Shown: positions 6,943-54,209 of the stretch, in pieces
Layout of the letters: the number at the start of each line of letters is the position of its first letter
Position numbering within the stretch: position 1 is the stretch's first letter
Source: Parcubacteria group bacterium
Lineage (GTDB): Bacteria; Patescibacteriota; Minisyncoccia; Phycocordibacterales; Phycocordibacteraceae
Reading direction: 5' to 3'
Assembly: GCA_028286525.1 (NCBI GenBank)
Contig: JAQBRL010000020.1
Coordinates: forward strand, 7,444-71,443
Length of the DNA stretch: 64,000 bases
Made by a program: the position numbers and the translations under genes
The notes under the pieces: generated by a model
The model's database searches: none
Told to the model about the DNA's origin: nothing
The model's input: only the letters and a program-made list of their open reading frames with translations

Positions 6943-7974
6943 ATGAAGTATCTCGCTGGAAAAAAGATATTCGTCGGTCTTTCCGGCGGCGTTGATTCCG
7001 CGGTCACCGCCGCGCTCCTGCAGCAAGCGGGCGCTGACGTATACGGCGTATTCATCAAGGGTTGGTATCCCCCGGAGCTCCTGTGCACCTGGGCAAGCGA
7101 CCGTCGTGACGCGATGCGCGTGGCTGCCCATCTAGGCATTCCATTCCATACGCTCGACGCGTCGAAGGAGTACAAGCGATCGGTCATTGACTATCTCGTC
7201 CGTGAGTATGGCGCGGGACGCACTCCCAATCCGGACATTATGTGCAATCGCGACGTAAAATTCGGCGTGTTCTACGAATTCGCCAAAGCCTACGGAGCGG
7301 ACCATATCGCGACCGGGCACTACGCCCGTCAGGAAGGGGGGAGACTTCTCCAAGGACTCGACCCCGAGAAGGACCAGAGCTACTTCTTGTGGGCGATCTC
7401 GCCTCTCGCGCTCTCCATGACCCTCTTTCCGCTCGGCGCGCTCCATAAGAGCGAAGTGCGTACGCTCGCGAAGAGTTTCGATCTTCCGAATGCGGACAAA
7501 AGGGATAGTCAGGGCATCTGCTTCCTGGGGCCGGTTTCCATGGATGATTTTCTCCGCGCCGAGCTCCCGAACCAGCCCGGAAAAGCTATCGATGAGAGCG
7601 GTATCGAAGTGGGCCAGCATGACGGCGTCCTGCTCTCGACGCTCGGTGAGCGCATCGCGCTTAGGAGCGCCGTTCCAGGACCATGGTATGTACTCGAAAA
7701 GGACATTCCGAATAACGTTCTCGTCGTCGCGAAGGAGCGCAGAGCGGAAGCGAGCACGTCCGCACTACACCTTGCAGATGCGAACTGGTTCACCAAACCC
7801 AGCGAGAGCGAAGAAGTGCACGGGCAGTATCGGTATCATGGGCCGTTTGTCGCGGGCGTGCTGCGCGCAGACGTGTTCGTCCCGAACGAACCTGCGACCG
7901 AACCCATCGCGAGCGGCCAATCGCTGGTGCTGTACCAGGGCGACGAAGTACTCGGTGGTGGTATTATCGGGTAA
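6943..7974 (+). CDS. mnmA: tRNA 2-thiouridylase MnmA
   Basis: A PP-loop SGGVDSAV motif is present and the layout matches MnmA. The start was chosen at MKYLAGKK. Confidence 0.9.
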   Translation: MKYLAGKKIFVGLSGGVDSAVTAALLQQAGADVYGVFIKGWYPPELLCTWASDRRDAMRVAAHLGIPFHTLDASKEYKRSVIDYLVREYGAGRTPNPDIMCNRDVKFGVFYEFAKAYGADHIATGHYARQEGGRLLQGLDPEKDQSYFLWAISPLALSMTLFPLGALHKSEVRTLAKSFDLPNADKRDSQGICFLGPVSMDDFLRAELPNQPGKAIDESGIEVGQHDGVLLSTLGERIALRSAVPGPWYVLEKDIPNNVLVVAKERRAEASTSALHLADANWFTKPSESEEVHGQYRYHGPFVAGVLRADVFVPNEPATEPIASGQSLVLYQGDEVLGGGIIG

Positions 7975-8810
7975 TGCCAGTAGAGATAGTTAAAACCGAC
8001 GGAACCACCGAAGCGTTCGATGGCATGAAGCTCGAGTGGTCGCTCCGTCGCGCAGGCGCAACGACGCATACCGCCGAGCGCATCCGGCACACCATCGAAG
8101 CTTCCATTTCGGCCGGTGCGCCCACGCAAGAGATATACAAGCGCGCGTTCCAGATGCTTCGCCATGACGCGCGGCCTGCCGCCGCGCGCTACAGCCTGCG
8201 GCGGGCCTTATTCGAGTTCGGCCCTTCGGGCCATCCGTTCGAGAATTACGTTTCCGAACTTTTCAAGAAAGAAGGATGGTCCGTGGAATATCGCCGCGTC
8301 ATTCCCGGTAAATGCGTATCGCACGAAGTCGACGTGTACGCGACCCGCAATGGGGAATACCTTGCGGCGGAACTCAAATATCATAATGACCCCGGGTACA
8401 AGACCGACGTGAAGACAGCCCTGTACGTGAAAGCTCGCTTCGACGATATCTGGCAATGCGATCCCAAACATGATGAGCACTGTCCGGTCGATCACGGATT
8501 CCTGATAACCAATACGAAATTCACGCGCGATGCGGTGCAGTTCGCCACCTGCTCCGGTATCCAGCTCCTGGGGTGGAGCTACCCCGCAGAGGGAAGCCTC
8601 TATGACCGCATAGTCGCGACCGGTCTCTATCCGGTGACGGCGCTCACCATGCTCAAGAAGACCGAAAAGAGATTGCTTATCGACCAAGGCATCGTTACCT
8701 GCGACCAGGTACGCGAGAACCGCGACGTGCTCCGCGCGCTCAATATCGCTCCGGAACGCATCGGTACTATACTCGCCGAGGCCAACACCCTTTGTAACTC
8801 CTACGCATAA
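7974..8810 (+). CDS. ATP-cone domain fused to an Mrr/PD-(D/E)xK restriction-endonuclease-like domain
   Basis: The N-terminus is ATP-cone-like (VEIVKTDGTTEAFDGMKL...). The middle region has the HEVDVY...ELKYH catalytic signature. Confidence 0.65.
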   Translation: MPVEIVKTDGTTEAFDGMKLEWSLRRAGATTHTAERIRHTIEASISAGAPTQEIYKRAFQMLRHDARPAAARYSLRRALFEFGPSGHPFENYVSELFKKEGWSVEYRRVIPGKCVSHEVDVYATRNGEYLAAELKYHNDPGYKTDVKTALYVKARFDDIWQCDPKHDEHCPVDHGFLITNTKFTRDAVQFATCSGIQLLGWSYPAEGSLYDRIVATGLYPVTALTMLKKTEKRLLIDQGIVTCDQVRENRDVLRALNIAPERIGTILAEANTLCNSYA

Positions 8811-8815
8811 ACGAT

Positions 8816-9601
8816 ATGGCCGACTTCAAGAAGCAGTACAATCCGAATCGGAACGCCGACTGGAACTATGGCGGCCCGAAATGGCGTCTTTCGCGCTCCA
8901 AGATCGAGCTATTCAACGAGTGCCCGCGCTGCTTCTACCTCGATAACAAGCTAGGGACCGCGCGTCCGCGCGGCCCCGCCTTCACTCTCAATATCGCGGT
9001 CGATACGCTCTTCAAGAAGGAATTCGACGCCCACCGGAATGCTGCGACCGCGCATCCGTTGATGACCAAGTACGGTATCGATGCCGTACCATTCGCGCAC
9101 GCGAAGATGGATACGTGGCGAGAGAATTTCGAAGGGGTCGATTACTTCCATGAGCCGACCGGCTTCACCATTTCAGGCGCCGTAGACGATATCTGGGTGA
9201 ATCCTAAAGGCGAGCTCATCGTAGTCGACTACAAGGCGACCTCGAAGGACGGCACCATCACCACGCTCGAGGATTCTTCCTGGAACGAGCAGTACAAGCG
9301 CCAGATGGGGGTGTATCAGTGGCTCCTGCGCAACAATGGATTCGCGGTCTCTTCCACCGGCTACTTCGTATATGCGAACGCACGCTCCGATAAAAAGGCA
9401 TTCGATGGAACGCTCGAATTCGAAGTCACCGTAGTGCCGAGCGAAGGCGACACGAACTGGATAGATGACGTTCTACCCAAGATAAAGGAGACGCTCGATA
9501 GCCAATCCATTCCTCCTTCTGGAAAGGCGTGCGAATACTGCCCGTACCGCGAGGCAGCAGGGAAGAAGCTGCAGGCGATCCACAAAGCAGCGAAGCGGTA
9601 G
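8816..9601 (+). CDS. Cas4/RecB-like PD-(D/E)xK nuclease with four Cys (putative Fe-S cluster)
   Basis: Motifs read as VDDIW, VVDYK and QYKRQMGVYQWLL (QxxxY). Cys pairs are CPRCF at the N-terminus and CEYCPY at the C-terminus. Confidence 0.6.
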   Translation: MADFKKQYNPNRNADWNYGGPKWRLSRSKIELFNECPRCFYLDNKLGTARPRGPAFTLNIAVDTLFKKEFDAHRNAATAHPLMTKYGIDAVPFAHAKMDTWRENFEGVDYFHEPTGFTISGAVDDIWVNPKGELIVVDYKATSKDGTITTLEDSSWNEQYKRQMGVYQWLLRNNGFAVSSTGYFVYANARSDKKAFDGTLEFEVTVVPSEGDTNWIDDVLPKIKETLDSQSIPPSGKACEYCPYREAAGKKLQAIHKAAKR

Positions 9602-22569: not shown

Positions 22570-23601
22570 ATGAGGATCGCGCAGATCGCCCCCATCATCG
22601 AACGCGTGCCTCCGACAAAATACGGAGGCACCGAGCGTGTCGTGCATGCGCTTACCGAAGAGCTGGTGCAGCGCGGGCACGAGGTTACGTTGTTCGCGAC
22701 CGGAGACTCCCTCACCTCGGCCACGCTCTCCTCCATCTATCCGACGGCGCTCCGGGAATCGAAGATGAAGGACCTGTACGGCTCGAACGTTTGGAGTCTG
22801 TTCAACCTCGGCAAAGCGTACGAGCGCGCGGAAGAGTTCGATATCATCCATGACCACAATGGCTACTTGGGCTTGCCAGCCGCTAATATTTCGAAGACGC
22901 CGGTCGTCATGACCTGTCACGGCCCCTTTACCCCCGAGAACCGGCATATCTACCGCGAGCTGCGCCATCCGCACCTGGTCACCATTTCGGACTCGCAGGC
23001 GACGGTACCGGGGCTCAATTATGCCGGCACGGTCTACAACGGCCTTGATCTCGAGCCGTATCCGTTCTCGGAGGACCAGGACGGGTACCTGCTTTTCGTC
23101 GGGCGGATATCGCGCGAAAAAGGCCTCCATATCGCTATAGAAGTAGCGCTCAACGTGAATATGCCGCTCATCATCGCCGCAAAGCTCGACGAGACGGATC
23201 GCAATTATTTTACCCAATACGTCGAGCCGTACCTTTCCGAGAAGATACGATGGATAGGGGAAGTGGACGAAGTGGAGCGCAATCAGCTCATGAGCAGGGC
23301 ATTCTGCCTCGTCCATGCAGCAACGTGGCGCGAGCCGTTCGGTCTCACGCTTATCGAGGCGATGGCCTGCGGCGCTCCCGTGCTGGGCACGAATATGGGC
23401 TCCATACCGGAGCTCGTCGAGCATGGGAAGACCGGCTTCGTCGTTAACTCGGTCGAGGAGATGATCGATGCCGTGTTCCAGGTAGAGAAACTCGATAGGC
23501 GTGATTGCCGAGCGCATGTCCTCGGACGATTCTCGGCCGCGCATATGACCGATGGATACGAAGAGGTGTATAGAAAAGCGATCGCTGCGAACCAGCTATA
23601 G
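22570..23601 (+). CDS. Glycosyltransferase family 4
   Basis: A GT-B fold with the EPFGLTLIEAMACGAPV motif is present. Confidence 0.8.
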   Translation: MRIAQIAPIIERVPPTKYGGTERVVHALTEELVQRGHEVTLFATGDSLTSATLSSIYPTALRESKMKDLYGSNVWSLFNLGKAYERAEEFDIIHDHNGYLGLPAANISKTPVVMTCHGPFTPENRHIYRELRHPHLVTISDSQATVPGLNYAGTVYNGLDLEPYPFSEDQDGYLLFVGRISREKGLHIAIEVALNVNMPLIIAAKLDETDRNYFTQYVEPYLSEKIRWIGEVDEVERNQLMSRAFCLVHAATWREPFGLTLIEAMACGAPVLGTNMGSIPELVEHGKTGFVVNSVEEMIDAVFQVEKLDRRDCRAHVLGRFSAAHMTDGYEEVYRKAIAANQL

Positions 23602-24834
23602 CTCCGCGAGCATGGACGCGGCGCTCCAGGCCTGCTTCATGCAGGCGCGCTGGCCGGTTTCAGACACATATTCCGCGAAGCCTTCCTCTGTGGTGTAAAC
23701 AAAAAGCTCGATGGGTGTCTTGAAATGATCCCATGAATGATGCAGGGCCTCGCCAAGCGCCTGCGCCTCCAGGGTATAGCCGAACCTGCGCAGTCCCTCC
23801 GCGACGATAGCGGTGTCATGCGGCCAGATGGAGCCGTTGTGGTAGCTGTTCGGGTCGTACTTGCTCGAGCGCTTGGAAAGGGTGCGGATGCCGGCGTTCG
23901 GCTCGAACAGTTCCGGCGACATGAGAAGGTTCACCAGCTTCGGGATATGCTTCTTCTCGAGAATGGAGTCGGTCTCATGCGCAGCCCAGAGAATGTGGCC
24001 CACGGAAGAGCGGAGCGACGTCAGTCGCGCGCCATCGCCATCGAGCGCGAACGCGATACCGAACTCCGGAGCTTCGGTCACGAAATGCCGATTGAAGCGT
24101 TCCTTCAGTTCGACTGCTTCGCTCTCGATGCTCCAGAGCTTAAGCGCGAGATATGCATAGGCCTGAGCCTCTACGGGCGCTATGGGGTAGGGCGTGGGCG
24201 AGCCATCCTCGTGGAATACGGATTCGCTGCTGTCCATCCAGCTCTGGGTGGCGAGTCCGCCGTGCGTGCGCTCCGGATGGACGCGGTAGGTGAGGAAGCC
24301 GCGTGCATCCGCCTTGATGCTCCCCCGCACCCACGAAAGCGCAGCTTCGATGTTCGGTGCGATGCGCTCCTTGAAGTCCTCGTCCGCGCTCAGGGTCCAA
24401 TAGCGCGCGACCGCGATAAGGAACAACGGCGTGCTGTCCACGCTGTCGTAGATGCGCATCGTACCGTCCGGATAGACGTACCACGGGCGAGCATGATGCT
24501 GCGTCAGGTGCGCATGATTATCCTCGCGGTATTCGTGGATTATCTTGCCCGGCTCCTCGCCGCTTTCGATATTGACTGTAGTGCCCTGAAGCTCGACCAG
24601 GCTCATGAGTATTTTCTTCACGAGCGCGAGCAAGTACGGGTCAGGCGTGCGCTCGTGCGCGGAGAGAAGCTTCAGCGCCGTAATAAGCGAGTCGCGGCCG
24701 AATATGCATCCGTATATCTCCTCTTTACCGGACGCGAGAATGCCTCGAGCGGTCTCGAGCTCTTCGATGGTAGCGCGACCCAGTGTGCGGAGTGCGTCGT
24801 TCATATCTATGTAGACGAGTGTAGTCGACTTCAT
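23596..24834 (-). CDS. Glycogen-debranching-enzyme-like (amylo-alpha-1,6-glucosidase family) six-hairpin glycosidase
   Basis: It has GDE_C-like residues (GSIWPHD, YHNG, GYTLEA) and converges on the GT4 gene with a 6-nt overlap. Confidence 0.65.
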   Translation of the reverse strand: MKSTTLVYIDMNDALRTLGRATIEELETARGILASGKEEIYGCIFGRDSLITALKLLSAHERTPDPYLLALVKKILMSLVELQGTTVNIESGEEPGKIIHEYREDNHAHLTQHHARPWYVYPDGTMRIYDSVDSTPLFLIAVARYWTLSADEDFKERIAPNIEAALSWVRGSIKADARGFLTYRVHPERTHGGLATQSWMDSSESVFHEDGSPTPYPIAPVEAQAYAYLALKLWSIESEAVELKERFNRHFVTEAPEFGIAFALDGDGARLTSLRSSVGHILWAAHETDSILEKKHIPKLVNLLMSPELFEPNAGIRTLSKRSSKYDPNSYHNGSIWPHDTAIVAEGLRRFGYTLEAQALGEALHHSWDHFKTPIELFVYTTEEGFAEYVSETGQRACMKQAWSAASMLAEL

Positions 24835-24909
24835 CTTTCGCGGATAGAGCGATGTCGTGAGCGCTTCATTTTTTGACTAGCTTCATAAATTCAGGCATAT
24901 TCTAGATAT

Positions 24910-25461
24910 ATGCGGGATGAAGACGTGACCATAGAAACCGACGGCTCGGAAGAGCCAGGGGCAAGCGAGGAAGAGCTCGAAGCGGTCGAAAGCCGAGTGG
25001 ATTCGAAGGTGGCAAAGCTGAAAGCCGAGCTCGAGCACGCCAAGAAGGAAAAGCAGGAGTATCTCGACGGCTGGCAGCGCGCCAAGGCCGACTATGTGAA
25101 CGCTCTGAAACGCTTCGAAGAGGACAAACGCTCTGCGATCGCGCTCGGTCAAACCAAAGCGGTACTTCTCTTCATGCCCGCGCTCGATTCGCTCGCACGC
25201 GCGCGCCAAAGCGGCGAGGCTATGCCAGCGGGCTTCGAAGCTATCGCCAAGCAGCTGGAGGAAGCGGGAAAAGCCATCGGGCTCACGCCTATCGGCATCG
25301 TGGGCGAAAAGTTCGACCCGAACCTGCATGAGGCGCTCGGCCAGGATGCAGCAGCTTCAATGGAAGACGATGACACCGTCACCGCCATTCTCGAGCCAGG
25401 CTGGAAGGCGGGAGAAGCTGTTATCCGACCAGCGAAGGTACGCGTCGGACATTTCGAGTGA
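24910..25461 (+). CDS. grpE: Nucleotide exchange factor GrpE
   Basis: An acidic N-terminus, a coiled coil and the GrpE C-terminal beta domain (GWKAGEAVIRPAKVRV) are present. Confidence 0.9.
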   Translation: MRDEDVTIETDGSEEPGASEEELEAVESRVDSKVAKLKAELEHAKKEKQEYLDGWQRAKADYVNALKRFEEDKRSAIALGQTKAVLLFMPALDSLARARQSGEAMPAGFEAIAKQLEEAGKAIGLTPIGIVGEKFDPNLHEALGQDAAASMEDDDTVTAILEPGWKAGEAVIRPAKVRVGHFE

Positions 25462-25476
25462 TAAGCTAGCTCGTAT

Positions 25477-26115
25477 ATGGAAAATGCACCTGACCGGATA
25501 CACGAAGGAGACCGCGGCGCTCAGGCGCTCGACGGAACGTTCGAGAAACTCTATGGCCGCGCACCTGACGGTACCTTTCGTGGCCTTATACCGGATAGCA
25601 ATCTCGATCAAGTGGTCTACTATCACGACGAGACTGGAAAGCCCCATTGGCACTTCATTTCATACGGTTTCAGCCAGTTAGGCGGGCAGCCGCAGGACGA
25701 AGCGGCACCCAGTGACGAGGAAAGCGGTTCCGGTTACGAAGTTACCTTCCGTATCCCACGTACTGATGAGGCAACGGCACCTCAATGGGTAGATCGCGCC
25801 TACAACGACTTCGCGAATTACTCCTTCGAGAATCAAATCGCCTTTCGTCCGTATGACTATGTCGACTACGACTTCGATACGGGAAAGGAGCACGGCTATG
25901 CCGGCTTCATGTTCGTGCAGGATTCACGTCTCAAGGAAATAGAGACGCCCAATGGTACGGTCGCATTCCTACAGGTGGTCCCCGTAAGCGCAGAGCAGCT
26001 CAATACGCTCAAGGTAGCGGAGCCGGATACGCAAGCCTACACGGCTGCAGCCAAGCGCATAATAGAAGAGCTCAAGAGCACTGAGACAGATCTCCTCATC
26101 GCCAACTTTTCATAG
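25477..26115 (+). CDS. SUFU (suppressor-of-fused)-like domain protein
   Basis: HWHFISYGFSQLGG, YEVTFRIPR and AFLQVVPVSAEQL match the SUFU-family HWHY(I/V)SFGLS, (F/Y)E(L/V)TFR(L/I) and FLQIVGV blocks. Confidence 0.7.
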   Translation: MENAPDRIHEGDRGAQALDGTFEKLYGRAPDGTFRGLIPDSNLDQVVYYHDETGKPHWHFISYGFSQLGGQPQDEAAPSDEESGSGYEVTFRIPRTDEATAPQWVDRAYNDFANYSFENQIAFRPYDYVDYDFDTGKEHGYAGFMFVQDSRLKEIETPNGTVAFLQVVPVSAEQLNTLKVAEPDTQAYTAAAKRIIEELKSTETDLLIANFS

Positions 26116-26118
26116 GAC

Positions 26119-26147
26119 TTGAACGCTTCATAATAGAGGCGTAAAAT
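26119..26147 (+). promoter_or_regulatory. Sigma70-like promoter for dnaK: TTGAAC, 17-nt spacer, TAAAAT
   Basis: The hexamers were read directly. The leader is about 55 nt and contains the near-palindrome CGCATTAG-N6-CTAATACG (26175..26196). Confidence 0.4.
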
Positions 26148-26204
26148 ACGAGTACTTGGGCTTTTTCGGGCGAACGCATTAGAAACCGCTAATACGCATT
26201 TCAT

Positions 26205-28109
<1,905 letters not shown>

Positions 28110-28163: not shown

Positions 28164-28490
28164 GTGCGAGGACCGAGGGAGGGCCGCATGAAGATAGAAG
28201 ATCGGATACTCCGAACCCTGCGTTTGAGCAATCAGGCGTCATGGCTCACCACGGCAGAGATCATTTCTGCCGCGAAGGGCCGCGATGGCCACGATATGCA
28301 GCTCTACCTGGTCATTGTGGAGCTCGGCAGGCTCGAAAGCCTTGATCTGGTCGAAAGCCGGAAACGTCCCCTTGACGATGAGCTGGAAGTCACCGAGTTC
28401 CATCTCGCCGAAGGCGGAGTAGAGCGTCGTGATTCCGGACCGACCACAGGTCCAGAACCGCATACGCTCAAGCAACGAGAGCTCGCGTAG
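28164..28490 (+). CDS. Hypothetical small winged-helix-like protein
   Basis: About 100 aa, with a predicted HTH-like segment (RILRTLRLSNQASWLTTAEIISAA); the true start may be M at 28188. Confidence 0.4.
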   Translation: MRGPREGRMKIEDRILRTLRLSNQASWLTTAEIISAAKGRDGHDMQLYLVIVELGRLESLDLVESRKRPLDDELEVTEFHLAEGGVERRDSGPTTGPEPHTLKQRELA

Positions 28491-28494
28491 GAAC

Positions 28495-28523
28495 GGGCGG
28501 CATGCGCAAGCAGCCGCCCTTTG
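28495..28523 (+). terminator. GC-rich hairpin (gggcggc ... gccgccc) followed by TTTGCC
   Basis: The stem was read directly. It lies after the wHTH ORF and before paralog 1. Confidence 0.45.
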
Positions 28524-28565
28524 CCTTATCTAAGCGAAAGGGTATAAAGCAGCTGGAGGTGAGCT

Positions 28566-28835
28566 ATGAAGCAACCAAAACCATTCAGTCTGAACGACGC
28601 CGTCACCTGGAAGGCCGCGAGGGATCAGAACTATCGGGTGCGGGAGTATGCACGAGCCTTCCGCACCCATGAAAAAGGTCCGTTCACCGTCGAAGCCCTC
28701 GTCATGCGGAATGTCTGGTGCCTGGTACTGAAAGACGCGAACGGAACGCTCTTCGACCCCGAGAAAACACCTGCGTTGTTGAGAACTCCGGCGTTGTTCC
28801 CCGCGTGCTGGTTCGAACGAGTGTATACGGAATGA
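28566..28835 (+). CDS. Small hypothetical protein, paralog 1 (D-VTW...GPFTVE family)
   Basis: It shares DxVTW-x22-GPFTVE with the ORF at 28912, and a GGAGG RBS sits 8 nt upstream. Confidence 0.45.
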   Translation: MKQPKPFSLNDAVTWKAARDQNYRVREYARAFRTHEKGPFTVEALVMRNVWCLVLKDANGTLFDPEKTPALLRTPALFPACWFERVYTE

Positions 28836-28859
28836 GGGCGGATGCGCACGCATCCGCCC
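28836..28859 (+). repeat. Near-perfect palindrome gggcggatgcgcacgcatccgccc (hairpin or terminator)
   Basis: An 11-bp stem was read directly. It closely resembles the hairpin at 63055..63080. Confidence 0.5.
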
Positions 28860-28911
28860 TTGACCTTTCTCGATGGGTGTATGCTTGACATAGGACAGGA
28901 GGGACGGAGCA

Positions 28912-29184
28912 GTGAAGATGTTTGAGATATTCAATAGAGGCGACCAGGTCACCTGGCGACCCGAGGATGAGTTGCCGGAAGTCATCAAGTCTAATTTGAC
29001 TGACAATGTCGCAGAGTTCGGACTCGGACCCTTTACCGTCGAACGAATCGAGAACGCCCGGAGCTTCGCTGGATTCAATCCGGCACATCCGCAACGTGTC
29101 ATGGTTTCGTTCGAAGGCAAGCTCATTCTCCATCAATTCAGCGGCATTTGTTTCGCGAAAGCGAACCTGGACGGGACGCACTAA
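28912..29184 (+). CDS. Small hypothetical protein, paralog 2
   Basis: GDQVTW...GLGPFTVERIE matches paralog 1, and an SD-like aggaggga lies upstream. Confidence 0.45.
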   Translation: MKMFEIFNRGDQVTWRPEDELPEVIKSNLTDNVAEFGLGPFTVERIENARSFAGFNPAHPQRVMVSFEGKLILHQFSGICFAKANLDGTH

Positions 29185-29203: not shown

Positions 29204-29232
29204 TTGATACGTTCCGGCATCAGGTATATACT
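29204..29232 (+). promoter_or_regulatory. Sigma70-like promoter for dnaJ: TTGATA, 17-nt spacer, TATACT, giving a leaderless or near-leaderless dnaJ mRNA
   Basis: The -10 ends 8 nt before the dnaJ ATG at 29241. Confidence 0.4.
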
Positions 29233-29240
29233 GCTGCTCT

Positions 29241-30317
29241 ATGGCCAAGAATTACTACGAAACTCTCGGCATCGACAAGAAAGCGAGCCCGGACGATATA
29301 AAGAAAGCTTTCCGCAAGCTTGCCCAGAAGCATCACCCAGACAAGGGCGGGGACGAGGCGAAGTTCAAGGAAATCACCGAGGCGTACTCGGTGCTCGCTG
29401 ACGAGAAGAAGCGCCGCGAATACGACTCGTACGGGCAGACGTTCGCAGGTGGAGCACCTGGCGGCGGGGGATTCGACCCCTCGCAATTTTCAGGCGGATT
29501 CGGCGGAGGCGTCGAGTTCGATCTGAACGACCTCTTCGAGGGATTCGGCGATATCTTCGGAGGCGCAGCAGCCCGCGGTGGCCGCGGCCGCATGAAGCGC
29601 GGGCGGGATATTTCCGTCGATATAGAGATCTCGTTCAAGGAATCCATTCTCGGCGGCAAACGCTCCGTGCTTATCTCGAAAATAGATAAATGCGAGGTAT
29701 GCCAGGGAAGCGGCGCGAAACCAGGAGCCGAGATGGAAACCTGCAAGACCTGCAATGGAGCAGGCCGCATCCATGAGACCCGGGACTCCGTACTGGGAGC
29801 CTTCACGAGCGTGCGCACCTGTCCGACCTGCGAGGGCACAGGCTCGGTACCGAAAGAGAAGTGCGAGAACTGCACGGGCCATGGCGTTCTCAAGAAGGAG
29901 GTGGAGCTCAATATCGACATTCCGCGCGGCATCGACGGCGGAGAGATGATACGCATGCCGGGCATGGGCGAGGCAATAAAGGGCGGCGTCTCCGGCGACC
30001 TCTACGTCAAAGTGCATGTGAAGCCGCACGCCGTATATCGCAAGGATGGCGCGAACCTCATCATGGAGCTTCCGGTGAAGCTTACGGACGCGCTTGTCGG
30101 TACTACCGTCACTATCACGACCATCGACGAAAAGACGCTTGAGGTGAAAGTGCCTCCGATGGCGAAGACCGAGGAGATACTTCGCATCAAAGGTCGCGGC
30201 GTTCACTATGACCAGGCGACCGGCGACCTCCTCATCCGCGTGACCGTGACGCTCCCGAAGAAGCTCTCGAACAAAGCCAAGAAAGCAATCGAAGACCTCA
30301 AGACCGAAGGACTGTAA
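29241..30317 (+). CDS. dnaJ: Chaperone DnaJ (Hsp40)
   Basis: A J-domain with HPD, a G/F region, four CxxCxGxG zinc-finger repeats and a C-terminal domain are present. Confidence 0.95.
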
Positions 30318-33622: not shown

Positions 33623-34030
33623 ATGTTATATAATCCACATACTATGAATTTTGGGGAACACCTGACACTCGACGGATATGGAGGCGATTATGAGCTGCTG
33701 AATGATCGCGAATACGTGCGTTCTTGCTTCGATGAACTCTTGGCCCATCTGGAGATGCATCCCCTTATCGAACCGGTGATCATCGAAGCGCCTGACAACC
33801 AGATCAAGGACCCCGGAGGCTGGAGCGGCTACGTGGTCATCGCAGAGAGCCATATCAGCATCCACACATTCCCGAAACGGAAGTTCATTTCAGCCGATGT
33901 ATACACCTGCCGAAACGGTATGGATAGGGAATATATCACTGAATATTTTAGAACGAAGTTCAAACTGACCGATCTCGAGACTAACTTCATCGTGCGCGGC
34001 ACCCGGTATCCCGAGCATAATCTCGTATGA
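33623..34030 (+). CDS. speH: S-adenosylmethionine decarboxylase proenzyme (pyruvoyl-dependent, SpeH type)
   Basis: LTLDGYGGD and the self-cleavage-site motif VVIAESHISIHTFPK are present; the start is possibly at MNFGEHL. Confidence 0.75.
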   Translation: MLYNPHTMNFGEHLTLDGYGGDYELLNDREYVRSCFDELLAHLEMHPLIEPVIIEAPDNQIKDPGGWSGYVVIAESHISIHTFPKRKFISADVYTCRNGMDREYITEYFRTKFKLTDLETNFIVRGTRYPEHNLV

Positions 34031-34635
34031 CAATACAGGCACTGTTTGGGATTGCCGCCGGCATATTATCGTTCGTCGCATACCCTGTCTACATACGAGA
34101 CATTCTCCGCGGTGAAACGAAGCCGAGCAAGGTAACCTGGTGGGTGCTCGCCTTCCTGAATGCTGCCCTTACCGCGAGCTATTATGCGTCAGGCGCTCGG
34201 GATACGATCTGGATTCCTATCAGTTATACCCTGGGATTCTCTGTCGTAGCGTTTCTTTCTCTCAAATACGGAGAGGGAAATTGGGAAAAGAGCGACTGGA
34301 TCTGCCTTACCGGCGCGGCAGTGAGCTTGTTCTTGTGGTGGTTCCTTCAGTCTGCCGAGGTTGCGCTATATCTTATTATAATCACTGATTTCATTGGTCT
34401 CGTCCCCACTATCTATAAGACGTACAAGAGACCCTGGACAGAGAGCAGGCTCTCTTGGTCAATCGCATTGATCGCCAGCGCGCTGAACGTGATCGCGATC
34501 GAGGATTGGTCTCCCGCAATCAGTTTCTATCCGTTCTATGTAGTGATAACGAATGCTCTTATCGTAGGATTTATATTGTTTCCGAGACATCGTGAACAGC
34601 AGATTGTTGAGCCTCGCAGCGATTCCGGCGCATGA
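34027..34635 (+). CDS. Hypothetical polytopic membrane protein
   Basis: Six or more TM helices are present, with 4-nt overlaps to both the upstream and downstream genes. Confidence 0.5.
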   Translation: MTIQALFGIAAGILSFVAYPVYIRDILRGETKPSKVTWWVLAFLNAALTASYYASGARDTIWIPISYTLGFSVVAFLSLKYGEGNWEKSDWICLTGAAVSLFLWWFLQSAEVALYLIIITDFIGLVPTIYKTYKRPWTESRLSWSIALIASALNVIAIEDWSPAISFYPFYVVITNALIVGFILFPRHREQQIVEPRSDSGA

Positions 34636-35573
34636 TTCCACAATTCCCCGACTTCAAGCAGCTTGAGTTTTCGGACAAAGACGAATTGGAGACATTCGCC
34701 GCTGGATTTTCGCCCTACTCCGATTTTGAATTCGCCAGCTTGTGGGCTTGGAACGTTCAAGAGAACATGGAACTGTCTCTACTACGAAAAAATCTAGTTG
34801 TGCGCTTCACAGATTACGTTACAGGCGCATTTTTTTATACTTTTCTTGGCAAAACCGAACTGAACGATACTGCTGAAGAGCTTATCGCCCTTTCTGAGAA
34901 AAAAGGCTATGGTTCCGTCTTACATCTGATACCAGAGGAGGCTATTACCGGACTTGATACCGACAGATTCGATATTACGGAATCACGTGACCATTTCGAT
35001 TATCTGTACGAAGTGGAGCAGCACGTAACGTATGGCGGCGGGAAGCTCAAATCAAGGCGCAATTTTTTGAATGGCTTCCTGAAGACCTATCCGCATTACG
35101 GTGCCGTACCTCTTGATCTTTCTGACGAGCTCACCCGGCGCGAAGTGCTCGAACTCTGTCGTAGATGGGAAGAGAATAAGGGATTTCCGATCCCTAATGA
35201 GCAGCGGGCTCTGAGCCGTTTTCTCGATGTTGCGCACTTTTTCACGTATAGCGCAGTCGGTATTACGATCGACAGCACGTTGGTAGGCTTCTGCACGACC
35301 GTGTTGCTCCGCGATGGGCGCGCAAACGCGCTTTTCGAAAAAGTAGATATCCGCTATCACGGTATCCATGCGCTGCTTCGGCATGAAGTGGCCAAGAACC
35401 TTATACGCGCGCGCTATACGCATCTTAATTATGAACAGGATCTTGGGATACTCTCTCTTCGCCAGTCGAAGACAGCCTTTAACCCGACCGGCTTCTTGAA
35501 GAAATATAGCGTTTCTCGCAAACGCACGGATGCGTTCGCTTCACAGACTCAACTTCCAGCTGAATTCGACTAG
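34632..35573 (+). CDS. DUF2156 / MprF C-terminal-like (aminoacyl-tRNA-dependent transferase fold) protein
   Basis: Its length and blocks (DFEFASLWAW, GYGSVLHLIPEEA) resemble the LPG-synthase C-terminal domain; the assignment is moderate. Confidence 0.45.
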   Translation: MIPQFPDFKQLEFSDKDELETFAAGFSPYSDFEFASLWAWNVQENMELSLLRKNLVVRFTDYVTGAFFYTFLGKTELNDTAEELIALSEKKGYGSVLHLIPEEAITGLDTDRFDITESRDHFDYLYEVEQHVTYGGGKLKSRRNFLNGFLKTYPHYGAVPLDLSDELTRREVLELCRRWEENKGFPIPNEQRALSRFLDVAHFFTYSAVGITIDSTLVGFCTTVLLRDGRANALFEKVDIRYHGIHALLRHEVAKNLIRARYTHLNYEQDLGILSLRQSKTAFNPTGFLKKYSVSRKRTDAFASQTQLPAEFD

Positions 35574-35630
35574 TGGAGAAGAGTCCTGGACGTTTATTCG
35601 GTTGGTATACTTACATACGAAGCTTGAACA

Positions 35631-35990
35631 ATGCACCGCTCTGCCCATAAAACTACATTCCTCATATGTGTCGGCATATTGGTGTTGATCGTCGCGATAC
35701 ATAATTTCGCTCGCTACTATGTGGCGAAAGATTATCCGTTCCATGTATTTACGAGCTGCGCTCCCTTCATGCACAGCTGCTTTACTGCTGACCCGACCAA
35801 CTCAGATCCGACATTCCAGGGCGGCGCATACGAAAAGGTCATGATCGACGCCGCACATGCACCGATATGCTTAGAGGAGCATACGTGCGCAAATTTCTCT
35901 TGCGATGGGCTCGGCGCACTATGCCAGGTGACGTATTGTTCGCCGGACGCTCTGGAAGATGGCGAAAGCTGCACTAGTTCAACTCAATAG
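35631..35990 (+). CDS. Small Cys-rich secreted or anchored protein
   Basis: An N-terminal TM or signal segment is followed by 9 Cys in about 80 residues. Confidence 0.4.
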   Translation: MHRSAHKTTFLICVGILVLIVAIHNFARYYVAKDYPFHVFTSCAPFMHSCFTADPTNSDPTFQGGAYEKVMIDAAHAPICLEEHTCANFSCDGLGALCQVTYCSPDALEDGESCTSSTQ

Positions 35991-35992
35991 CT

Positions 35993-37639
35993 ATGCTGGC
36001 ATATTTTATACACGCCCAATACTGCTACGAATATCTGGTAAATCAGATCCCGATGGGCCTGCTGCTGTATTCGCACCTACCGACATCGCTTCTTGCCCTC
36101 GCATTCGGGACATATGTGCTCTTCAAGGCACGTACACTTCCAGCCTTTCTCTTCTTCAATGTCTGTCTCATGTTCGCTATCTGGGCAGCATTCGATTTGA
36201 GCGCTTGGTTCGCGTTCCTCGGAGCCGATAATGTCATGTTCACCTGGTCTCTCCTCGATTTCTTTGCGGTACTCATGTTCTTTTTTACGTACTACTTCCT
36301 GTACACGTTCGTGACTGGTAAAGATCTACCGCTCTGGCAGAAACTCATCGGCATCGCTATTCTATTGCCCACAACGGTTATCGCGTTCATGGGAGTGAAC
36401 ATACCGACATACGACCTCAATTCCTGCACCGCGCTTGAGGACAACGCCTACACCATCTACACGTACATTGCCGAAGGGATATACATCCTGGTCACGATAG
36501 CGTTCCTCACTATCGAGTACCTGAAGAAGAAGGAGCGTACGCAACGACGTCGTACTCTCCTCGCCGGTACTGGAGTCCTGATATTCCTCGGGTTCTTCTT
36601 CTCAGCGAGTTTTCTGGTCAGTCTATACGCGAGCAGCGATGCATCTTCATACGTATACAACTATTTGATCTATGGATTATTTGGGATGCCGGTATTTCTC
36701 ATCTATCTTGGGTATCTAATCGTCAGATACCACGCATTCAATCTTAAGACATTCGGGGTACAGGCTCTTGTCGTGGCACTCATTGCAGTCCTCGCTTCTG
36801 AGTTTGCGTTCGTGACTACCCTTACGAGCCGCGTCCTTGTCGCCGTCACGCTTATCCTTACCGGCATTATCGGGACCCAGCTTATCCGGAGCGTTAAACG
36901 TGAAATAGAGCAGCGTGAGCATATAGAAAAACTTGCAGGAGATCTTGAGAAGGCGAATGAGCAGCAAATAGTCCTCATTCATTTCATTACGCACCAGATC
37001 AAAGGCTTCGTAACCAAGTCGCGCAATATCTTCTCGATGGTGCTCGAGGGAGATTTCGGATCAGTGCCAGAGCAAATGAAACCCATGCTCGAAGAGGGAT
37101 TCAGTTCGGACACCAAGGGCATGAACACGATTCAAGAGATTTTGAACGCAGCGAATATAAAAAGCGGGAAGGTCACGTATGCGATGGCGCCATTCGACAT
37201 GAAACTATTCATCGAGGAGATAGCGAAGGAACTCAAGCCTGCTGCCGATGCGAAAGGCCTCGAATTTACGCTTGACCTGGGCATGGGTACCGACGTCGTG
37301 ACAGGAGACCGGGGGCAGCTCGTGAATGTGTTCAAGAACCTCATCGACAACTCCATAAAATACACGCAGAAGGGCACGGTCACGGTACGCCTGAAAAAAG
37401 AAACCGGTAAGGTCATTTTCACGATCGAAGACACGGGTGTCGGGATCACGCCAGAGGATATGAAGAACCTATTCACGGAAGGAGGACACGGGAAGGAATC
37501 CACGAAGGTGAACGTGGAGTCCACTGGTTTCGGTCTCTACATCGTGAAGAACATCATCGATGCCCATAAGGGCAAGGTCTGGGCCGAGTCCGAAGGCGCA
37601 GGGAAGGGGAGCCGCTTCATCGTCGAGCTTCCCGCATAG
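35993..37639 (+). CDS. Sensor histidine kinase with multi-TM N-terminal sensor domain (orphan)
   Basis: About 7 TM helices are followed by an H-box (HFITHQIKG) and HATPase_c N/G1/G2 boxes (NLIDNSIKYT, EDTGVGI, GFGLYIV). Confidence 0.85.
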   Translation: MLAYFIHAQYCYEYLVNQIPMGLLLYSHLPTSLLALAFGTYVLFKARTLPAFLFFNVCLMFAIWAAFDLSAWFAFLGADNVMFTWSLLDFFAVLMFFFTYYFLYTFVTGKDLPLWQKLIGIAILLPTTVIAFMGVNIPTYDLNSCTALEDNAYTIYTYIAEGIYILVTIAFLTIEYLKKKERTQRRRTLLAGTGVLIFLGFFFSASFLVSLYASSDASSYVYNYLIYGLFGMPVFLIYLGYLIVRYHAFNLKTFGVQALVVALIAVLASEFAFVTTLTSRVLVAVTLILTGIIGTQLIRSVKREIEQREHIEKLAGDLEKANEQQIVLIHFITHQIKGFVTKSRNIFSMVLEGDFGSVPEQMKPMLEEGFSSDTKGMNTIQEILNAANIKSGKVTYAMAPFDMKLFIEEIAKELKPAADAKGLEFTLDLGMGTDVVTGDRGQLVNVFKNLIDNSIKYTQKGTVTVRLKKETGKVIFTIEDTGVGITPEDMKNLFTEGGHGKESTKVNVESTGFGLYIVKNIIDAHKGKVWAESEGAGKGSRFIVELPA

Positions 37640-53765: not shown

Positions 53766-54209
53766 ATGAGTAAGAAAAAAATATGGCTACCTATAGTAAT
53801 CCTACTGATCATTATAGTTGGTCTGGTAATTGCAATGAATAGGAATAATGCGATATCGGAGCCAGCTTATACAAATGAGACCAATGGTTCTGTCAGTTCT
53901 TCAAATTCATCAACGTCATATGCCCCTACCCCTATTGATCGTTCAAAACTTCTTAGCGGCAAATTTACCGAGAATCGATCTCCGGACGGTAAGTTCATCT
54001 CACACACCTTTGATAATGAACAAGGTGATTCTGGGGTATATCTAAGCACCAGCAGCGGCACTGACGTTAGTGCAACGTACTGTGGCTACTTTAAAGAATG
54101 GTCGCCTGATAGCAAAAAAATAACCGTATTTGTCCCTGAAGAGTGCGGTAAGGGTGTGCCACAGAATGAGACCTTTGAGCTACATGTCGATGGCACTATA
54201 AGTAAGTAA
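53766..54209 (+). CDS. Hypothetical signal-anchored protein (low-GC patch)
   Basis: An N-terminal TM helix is present and GC is much lower than the window average. Confidence 0.4.
   Translation: MSKKKIWLPIVILLIIIVGLVIAMNRNNAISEPAYTNETNGSVSSSNSSTSYAPTPIDRSKLLSGKFTENRSPDGKFISHTFDNEQGDSGVYLSTSSGTDVSATYCGYFKEWSPDSKKITVFVPEECGKGVPQNETFELHVDGTISK

Follow-up and report, generated by a model that had tools for sequence, protein, structure and literature searches.

A Suppressor-of-fused-like gene between grpE and dnaK in a Parcubacteria genome: an apparent accessory insertion with a possible immunity-type role

In the 64,000-nucleotide stretch of Parcubacteria DNA analysed here (the window), an open reading frame resembling eukaryotic Suppressor of fused (SUFU) stands between grpE and dnaK, raising the question of whether a new component has joined the Hsp70 system or an unrelated gene has settled in a chaperone operon. 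A preliminary description of the locus had proposed either co-expression with the Hsp70 system or a selfish insertion; of these alternatives, insertion of an accessory or selfish gene is favoured by the analysis below, whereas a functional tie to Hsp70 found no comparative support. The flanking genes were as it had described them, with grpE upstream (24910–25461, + strand; 183 aa, the Hsp70 nucleotide exchange factor; PF01025, E = 1.8e-29) and dnaK downstream (26205–28109, + strand; 634 aa; PF00012, E = 1.6e-241).

The SUFU-like ORF (25477–26115, + strand) starts with ATG and encodes a single-domain protein of 212 aa that has the fold of the Suppressor-of-fused N-terminal domain. The three blocks on which its identification had been based are literally present (HWHFISYGFS, aa 57–66; YEVTFRIPR, aa 87–95; AFLQVVPVSAEQL, aa 163–175), and membership of the SUFU family was upheld by Pfam, by a PDB sequence search and by a fold search. 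The Pfam SUFU profile PF05076, which the preliminary description had named as a check, matched the ORF with a score of 81.5 bits, the gathering cutoff being 25 (E = 8.6e-23; profile positions 7–149 of 172), and the matched region (25609–26019, + strand; aa 45–181) includes the HWHFISYGFS, YEVTFRIPR and AFLQVVPVS blocks. A phmmer search of all PDB sequences returned Suppressor-of-fused entries only, the best being the human N-terminal domain 1m1l (E = 3.7e-17, aa 56–177). An AlphaFold2 model built from 30 single-domain homologues had a mean pLDDT of 89.3 and a pTM of 0.86, and when it was compared with the PDB by Foldseek the top 23 matches were all SUFU (21 human and 2 Drosophila; E = 4e-14 to 2e-11, TM 0.74–0.77); the SUFU-like protein 3k5j of N. 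gonorrhoeae was also recovered (E = 2.4e-5), ranked after the animal SUFU structures. SUFU was the only domain found by Pfam, NCBIfam gave nothing significant, and neither collection revealed a co-chaperone domain (J domain, GrpE fold, NEF, TPR and the like) in the ORF.

Among 1.84 billion representative proteins, searched exhaustively with HMMER, 594 homologues were found, many of them single-domain proteins of about 190–250 aa and many two-domain proteins of about 350 aa. In the alignment of 30 single-domain homologues, G64, E88, W104 and D149 were invariant, as was G64-F-S66, and all are retained in the SUFU-like ORF, which thus shows the conserved features of the family, namely GxS after HWH, the E of the GFELTFR block and a conserved W and D. 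The published signature "GxS, E, E, DxxR" could be mapped in part, GxS and one E being clear and DxxR not identified. Taken together, the Pfam, PDB, fold, homologue-length and invariant-residue results show that the ORF is an intact and complete member of the SUFU family and not a fragment. We had considered that it might be a truncated two-domain SUFU protein; this was rejected, because single-domain forms of about 190–250 aa are common and the model is a complete domain. The closest homologue anywhere (P0004) is only about 40% identical to the window protein, and a neighbour-joining tree without support values placed the two in a short SUFU subclade together with P0005, P0006, P0066 and P0105. 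As an observation apart, P0006 has about 1.3 kb downstream of its gene a diversity-generating-retroelement-like pair (bAvd and an RVT_1 reverse transcriptase; L007:9555–10953). The window protein is identical to NCBI entry MDB5195267.1, from a Parcubacteria group MAG, whose public name is "branched-chain alpha-keto acid dehydrogenase subunit". The results from Pfam, the PDB and the fold search contradict this name, which is probably a misannotation that has been propagated.

How the gene is expressed can be approached from the anatomy of the locus. A consensus scan detected promoter-like sites only before grpE, dnaK and dnaJ. The site upstream of grpE (24873–24901, + strand; TTGACT, a 17-nt spacer and CATATT) has a −10 element that ends about 8 nt ahead of the ATG, so that the grpE transcript would be nearly leaderless; a block TTTTGACnAGCTTCA...GGCATATTCTA upstream of grpE is conserved in six related loci, and the site is the presumed promoter for grpE and the SUFU-like gene. 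The two genes are separated by a 15-nt spacer (25462–25476, + strand), in which the grpE stop codon TGA is followed by TAA, and which bounds the insertion on the left: when the junction was aligned with four relatives, the DNA proved homologous only as far as the stop codon of grpE. The right boundary is formed by the conserved region upstream of dnaK (26116–26204, + strand; 89 nt), which has a promoter-like site of its own (26119–26147; TTGAAC, a 17-nt spacer and TAAAAT) and leaves a dnaK leader of about 55 nt 5′ of the ATG. A block of this region, CTTGAAsnnTTCAT...GCGTAAAmTA, is conserved in seven loci and intact in the window, and it reads as a TTGAA −35 element, a 17–18-nt spacer and a TAAAAT or TAAACT −10 element. 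Among relatives with an empty site, the dnaK block starts 0–3 nt past the grpE stop codon in four of five; in the fifth (L011), the end of grpE was read a few bases later.

The consensus scan found no promoter-like site belonging to the SUFU-like gene itself, and no + strand terminator was predicted between grpE and dnaK. Given these two results and the 15-nt gap, the SUFU-like gene probably shares a transcript with grpE, as its second gene, and is read from the grpE promoter, as judged solely by consensus scans.

Compared with the canonical hrcA-grpE-dnaK-dnaJ heat-shock operon, the window retains the same order of grpE, dnaK and dnaJ on one strand (dnaJ, 29241–30317, + strand, 358 aa) but differs in having no hrcA gene upstream of grpE, no CIRCE operator or CIRCE-like site anywhere in the window, separate promoter-like sites for dnaK and dnaJ (the latter at 29204–29232), and lineage-specific ORFs in both the grpE-dnaK and the dnaK-dnaJ spacers. 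CIRCE/HrcA control was rejected on account of the missing CIRCE-like site. Since the hrcA gene is likewise missing upstream, heat-shock control in this lineage may involve an undescribed operator. We also observed that a near-palindrome, TGAAG-N-CTTCA, covers the −35 element in the conserved dnaK promoter block. The dnaK-dnaJ spacer carries three small lineage-specific ORFs (28164–29184, + strand; 108, 89 and 90 aa) that had no Pfam, NCBIfam, PADLOC or PHROGs match; homologues of the 89- and 90-aa ORFs lie at the same place in three relatives (L010, L094 and L093). These two ORFs share a D.VTW...GPF.VE motif by eye, and blastp between them gave no match at E ≤ 0.01. With small lineage-specific ORFs present between dnaK and dnaJ as well, the spacers of the chaperone operon evidently accumulate accessory genes, and the region is tolerant of them.

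Whether the SUFU-like gene is a conserved resident of the operon or a newcomer was decided by synteny. GrpE homologues with 75–90% identity occur in related Parcubacteria/Patescibacteria contigs, and the genomic context was read for seven of them (L096, L010, L094, L093, L011, L012 and L009). In L096 (GrpE 90% identical), L010 (88%), L094 (87%) and L093 (86%), dnaK follows grpE after 87–90 nt with no gene between them, and in L011 and L012 (75%) it follows after 68 nt, again with a junction that holds no gene. By this comparison five relatives lack an intervening gene and a sixth, L009 (GrpE 89% identical), has an unrelated one, a 192-aa protein with a hydrophobic N-terminus encoded at L009:8545–9123 (the counterpart of 25462–26115 in the window), at the same junction, after the grpE stop codon and ahead of the dnaK promoter; the insertion into grpE-dnaK that had been suggested for the window is thereby supported. 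The 192-aa protein had no Pfam, PADLOC or PHROGs match. The cargo of the window and that of L009 each fill exactly the space from the grpE stop codon to the dnaK block, and each ends in a TAG stop codon 2 nt before CTTGAA. The two cargo genes had seemed to share their 5′ ends; the apparent similarity was lost on alignment, and homology ends at the grpE stop codon. L009 also shares with the window a glycosyltransferase/GDE_C pair upstream of grpE, with 81% identity, and for this reason looks like a sister genome. This pair (22570–24834 in the window), in which a GDE_C/MGH1-like glycoside hydrolase gene converges on that of a GT4 glycosyltransferase, lies between a conserved 188-aa ORF and grpE; it is common to L009 only and missing in the other relatives, and from this distribution we take it to be another lineage-specific insertion beside the chaperone operon.

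The adjacency of grpE and dnaK had been called near-universal, which was overstated: it is the norm, but among 47 diverse metagenomic loci with both genes grpE directly preceded dnaK (gap up to about 160 nt) in 32, the remaining 15 consisting of 6 loci with dnaK before grpE, 6 with gaps of 250–550 nt and 3 with gaps of more than 1 kb, where all gaps are approximate because they were taken from tblastn ends. These 47 loci came from a GrpE-seeded metagenome scan that was dominated by the conserved GrpE motif, and most of them are distant.

Approached from the other direction, the SUFU family showed no link to chaperone genes. None of the GrpE-centred loci contained a SUFU gene, and the gene cannot be present in the genomes of these GrpE relatives, since the best SUFU homologue reaches only the identity given above for P0004 although GrpE relatives of 86–90% are on record. 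A scan of the genome collection with the single window protein found no relatives; a scan seeded with a four-sequence alignment gave 80 genome loci, mostly from Paenibacillus, Lysinibacillus and Brevibacillus, and not one of the 80 had GrpE, DnaK or DnaJ within 4 kb of the SUFU homologue. Altogether, grpE, dnaK or dnaJ was nearby in none of about 90 SUFU-homologue loci examined, and the closest homologues stand in contexts unrelated to chaperone genes. The composition of the SUFU-like gene (GC 0.543, GC3 0.606) lies below that of its chaperone neighbours in both measures (grpE 0.600 and 0.679; dnaK 0.601 and 0.767) and resembles that of other accessory-looking genes of the window. From the boundaries, the relatives and the composition, we conclude that the gene is, as far as genome comparison can tell, an accessory insertion of a single genome and not a conserved member of the operon.

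The vehicle of the insertion was sought among known mobile elements. No repeats bracketing 25462–26115 were found, and Pfam revealed no integrase or transposase within about 10 kb of the ORF; with neither flanking repeats nor an adjacent recombinase, the insert shows no signature of mobile-element cargo (IS, transposon or integron cassette). A defence-system or phage origin was rejected, as the ORF had no PADLOC or PHROGs match. Elsewhere in the window, two patches of low GC were noted against a mean of 0.57, one at 33623–37639 (0.49–0.51), which includes an LPG_synthase_C-like protein and a histidine kinase, and one at 53766–54209 (0.41); they may be further acquired segments. A leucyl-tRNA synthetase ORF at 166–2835 has an unusual architecture, in which an inserted NUDIX domain (PF00293, E = 9.9e-11, aa 322–439) separates the editing domain from the remainder of the catalytic core.

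What might such a gene do? The bacterial SuFu superfamily was proposed, and then surveyed in detail, as a group of immunity proteins of polymorphic toxin systems (PMC3113570, PMC3482391), in which it is the second most versatile immunity-protein superfamily, behind SUKH in the range of linked toxins (Zhang et al. 2011, PMC3113570; 2012, PMC3482391). SuFu proteins hold the immunity position beside HNH/EndoVII-fold and other toxins and are thought to act through a versatile protein-binding surface (PMC3113570, PMC3482391); SuFu is also a prominent domain in polyimmunity proteins, whose operons usually have no associated toxin gene (PMC3482391). The preliminary description had seen no toxin nearby, and this held for the 43 ORFs of the window scanned against Pfam, none of which had a polymorphic-toxin domain or a second immunity domain; no toxin cassette lay near the SUFU-like gene. 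The window covers 64 kb of the genome, and a cognate toxin may be encoded elsewhere in it. PADLOC gave no match on the locus. Imm-SuFu genes are recognised by their context, either because they directly follow a polymorphic toxin gene or cassette or because they belong to a polyimmunity locus. This defining signature is missing here, where the ORF is flanked by grpE and dnaK. Pfam found no polymorphic-toxin domain next to the closest SUFU homologues either, and the neighbours of the 80 genomic homologues were heterogeneous (DUF6138 14 times, GerE 11 times, Xre_MbcA_ParS_C 8 times); the top neighbour families included no classical polymorphic toxin. As a separate observation, adjacent nuclease-type ORFs, one with ATP-cone and Mrr_cat (restriction-endonuclease-like) domains and one PD-(D/E)XK/Cas4-like, occupy positions 7974–9601 of the window and are followed by a UDG-family protein.

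The explanation we favour overall, and hold to be reasonably probable, is that of a recent lateral acquisition: a single-domain, Imm-SuFu-like orphan binder of the toxin-immunity type, co-transcribed with grpE. An accessory SUFU-family gene would have entered this uncultured Parcubacteria (CPR/Patescibacteria) lineage recently, its point of entry being exactly the gap that separates the stop codon of grpE from the promoter of dnaK. It would be read as the second gene of the grpE transcript, in a strongly expressed operon, while dnaK would retain its own conserved promoter, for which reason the insertion should cost the chaperone system nothing. By analogy with what has been published on Imm-SuFu, the protein would then be a non-enzymatic binder, sequestering toxin domains that arrive from competing or host bacteria. 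It has the fold, the size, the patchy distribution and the lack of catalytic motifs expected of an Imm-SuFu protein, and among possible mechanisms that of an orphan Imm-SuFu-like binder is the most likely by this analogy, with about an even chance of being the right one.

The position of the gene invites a different reading, namely that the protein is an Hsp70 accessory (a co-chaperone, substrate adaptor or regulator) recruited to work with GrpE, DnaK or DnaJ. The gene does lie inside the operon, 15 nt after grpE and probably co-expressed with it, and SUFU domains are versatile protein-binding scaffolds (PMC3113570). Yet five close relatives do without the gene and a sixth has an unrelated gene at the site, neither the 80 genomic SUFU loci nor any closest homologue adjoins an Hsp70-system gene, and we found no open-access paper joining bacterial suppressor of fused and dnaK. 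Because the synteny tests failed, a role in the Hsp70 system is unlikely, indeed very improbable in our estimate, and nothing in the data speaks for a new part of the Hsp70 machinery. It is also conceivable that a recently acquired gene has no function at all and is a neutral passenger, possibly on its way to decay. Its presence in one genome only, a GC3 lower than that of core genes and the want of functional partners nearby would fit such a passenger; the ORF, however, is intact, of full length relative to its homologues and in possession of all family-invariant residues, its predicted fold is complete and confident, and its GC by codon position (GC1 0.62, GC2 0.40, GC3 0.61) follows the pattern of a coding gene, all of which make an inert passenger improbable.

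A binder with the SUFU fold need not confer immunity, and the protein could instead be, for example, a CPR-specific regulator or tether whose genes use housekeeping operons for constitutive expression. This is suggested by the distinct short subclade that the window protein forms with P0004, P0005, P0006, P0066 and P0105 in the tree without support values, by the lack of a recognisable toxin neighbour for any of its members, and by the fact that two of them are encoded within 15 nt of housekeeping genes, grpE here and pheT in L177. There, P0105 (210 aa; L177:8301–8933, also in L178 and L179) is appended 11 nt after pheT in the pheS-pheT operon; the same contig also encodes a sortase and VanY. 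We regard a non-immunity role as a serious alternative but as rather unlikely, given that no partner gene is conserved in any context, that patchiness even among near relatives typically marks conflict or accessory genes, not core regulators, and that immunity is the role known for the family in bacteria. The attachment to housekeeping operons leads to a bolder proposal. Two sister genomes carry different genes at the same junction, the SUFU-like gene here and the gene for the 192-aa protein with a hydrophobic N-terminus in L009, and the placement of the cargo TAG before CTTGAA is similar to that of the ancestral grpE stop codon. The stretch from the grpE stop codon to the −35 element of dnaK might be a recurrent site of cargo capture in this Parcubacteria clade or, alternatively, the short SUFU clade might have a CPR-specific function that needs stress-coupled expression; we think this distinctly unlikely. 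If true, such capture could reflect an unrecognised route by which CPR bacteria with reduced genomes attach orphan genes for defence or interaction to the transcripts of housekeeping genes.

For the favoured reading, that of a laterally acquired orphan binder, the SUFU family and orphan SuFu genes are already known; what is particular here is the Parcubacteria host, the closeness to animal SUFU and the site between grpE and dnaK. No open-access paper was found that combines "suppressor of fused", "bacterial" and "dnaK", and a SUFU protein in CPR bacteria was the subject of no title or abstract among the open-access SUFU/Patescibacteria papers, which were covered at the level of titles and abstracts. 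The analysis clears up an apparent oddity without revealing a new Hsp70 partner, and it shows how accessory genes can settle in the core-operon spacers of a streamlined CPR genome without breaking the operon, in this case with the insert placed upstream of dnaK's own promoter and probably borrowing that of grpE. It also corrects the public annotation of MDB5195267.1, adds Parcubacteria to the range of the SUFU/Imm-SuFu family and delineates a short subclade whose unusual closeness to animal SUFU may interest work on the bacterial origin of eukaryotic SUFU.

Among known systems, the Imm-SuFu proteins (PMC3113570, PMC3482391; prototype 3k5j) resemble the window protein in belonging to the same Pfam family, in their alpha+beta fold, in being standalone cytoplasmic proteins of about 200 aa and in having no enzymatic motifs. 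Its gene is like theirs in a patchy distribution that looks laterally transferred, and it is an orphan without a toxin, as polyimmunity operons usually are (PMC3482391). In contrast to Imm-SuFu genes, it adjoins neither a toxin gene or cassette nor another immunity gene and is embedded in a chaperone operon, and the phylum of its host, CPR/Parcubacteria, is absent from the published phyletic range (PMC3482391). The two-domain bacterial "suppressor of fused domain proteins" of about 353 aa (Paenibacillus, Lysinibacillus, Brevibacillus and others) have an N-terminal domain homologous to the window protein (31–38% identity, E = 1e-23 to 4e-29); they differ in an extra C-terminal half of about 140 aa that the window protein does not have (75 of the 80 are 350–399 aa long) and in their DUF6138, GerE or Xre_MbcA_ParS_C neighbours, and the window protein falls in the separate short subclade. 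Human SUFU, with 484 aa against 212, likewise has a C-terminal domain that is missing here. In SUFU, the C-terminal and N-terminal domains together clamp GLI; to our knowledge, bacteria have no Hedgehog pathway. It is nonetheless the N-terminal domain of eukaryotic SUFU (1m1l, 4km9, 4bl8) that gives the best match of all (TM 0.76, 24% identity over about 220 aligned columns): the HWHxISxG and FLQ(I/V)VG-like blocks are common to both, and in sequence as well as in structure the window protein stands far nearer to animal SUFU than to the prototype 3k5j from Neisseria.
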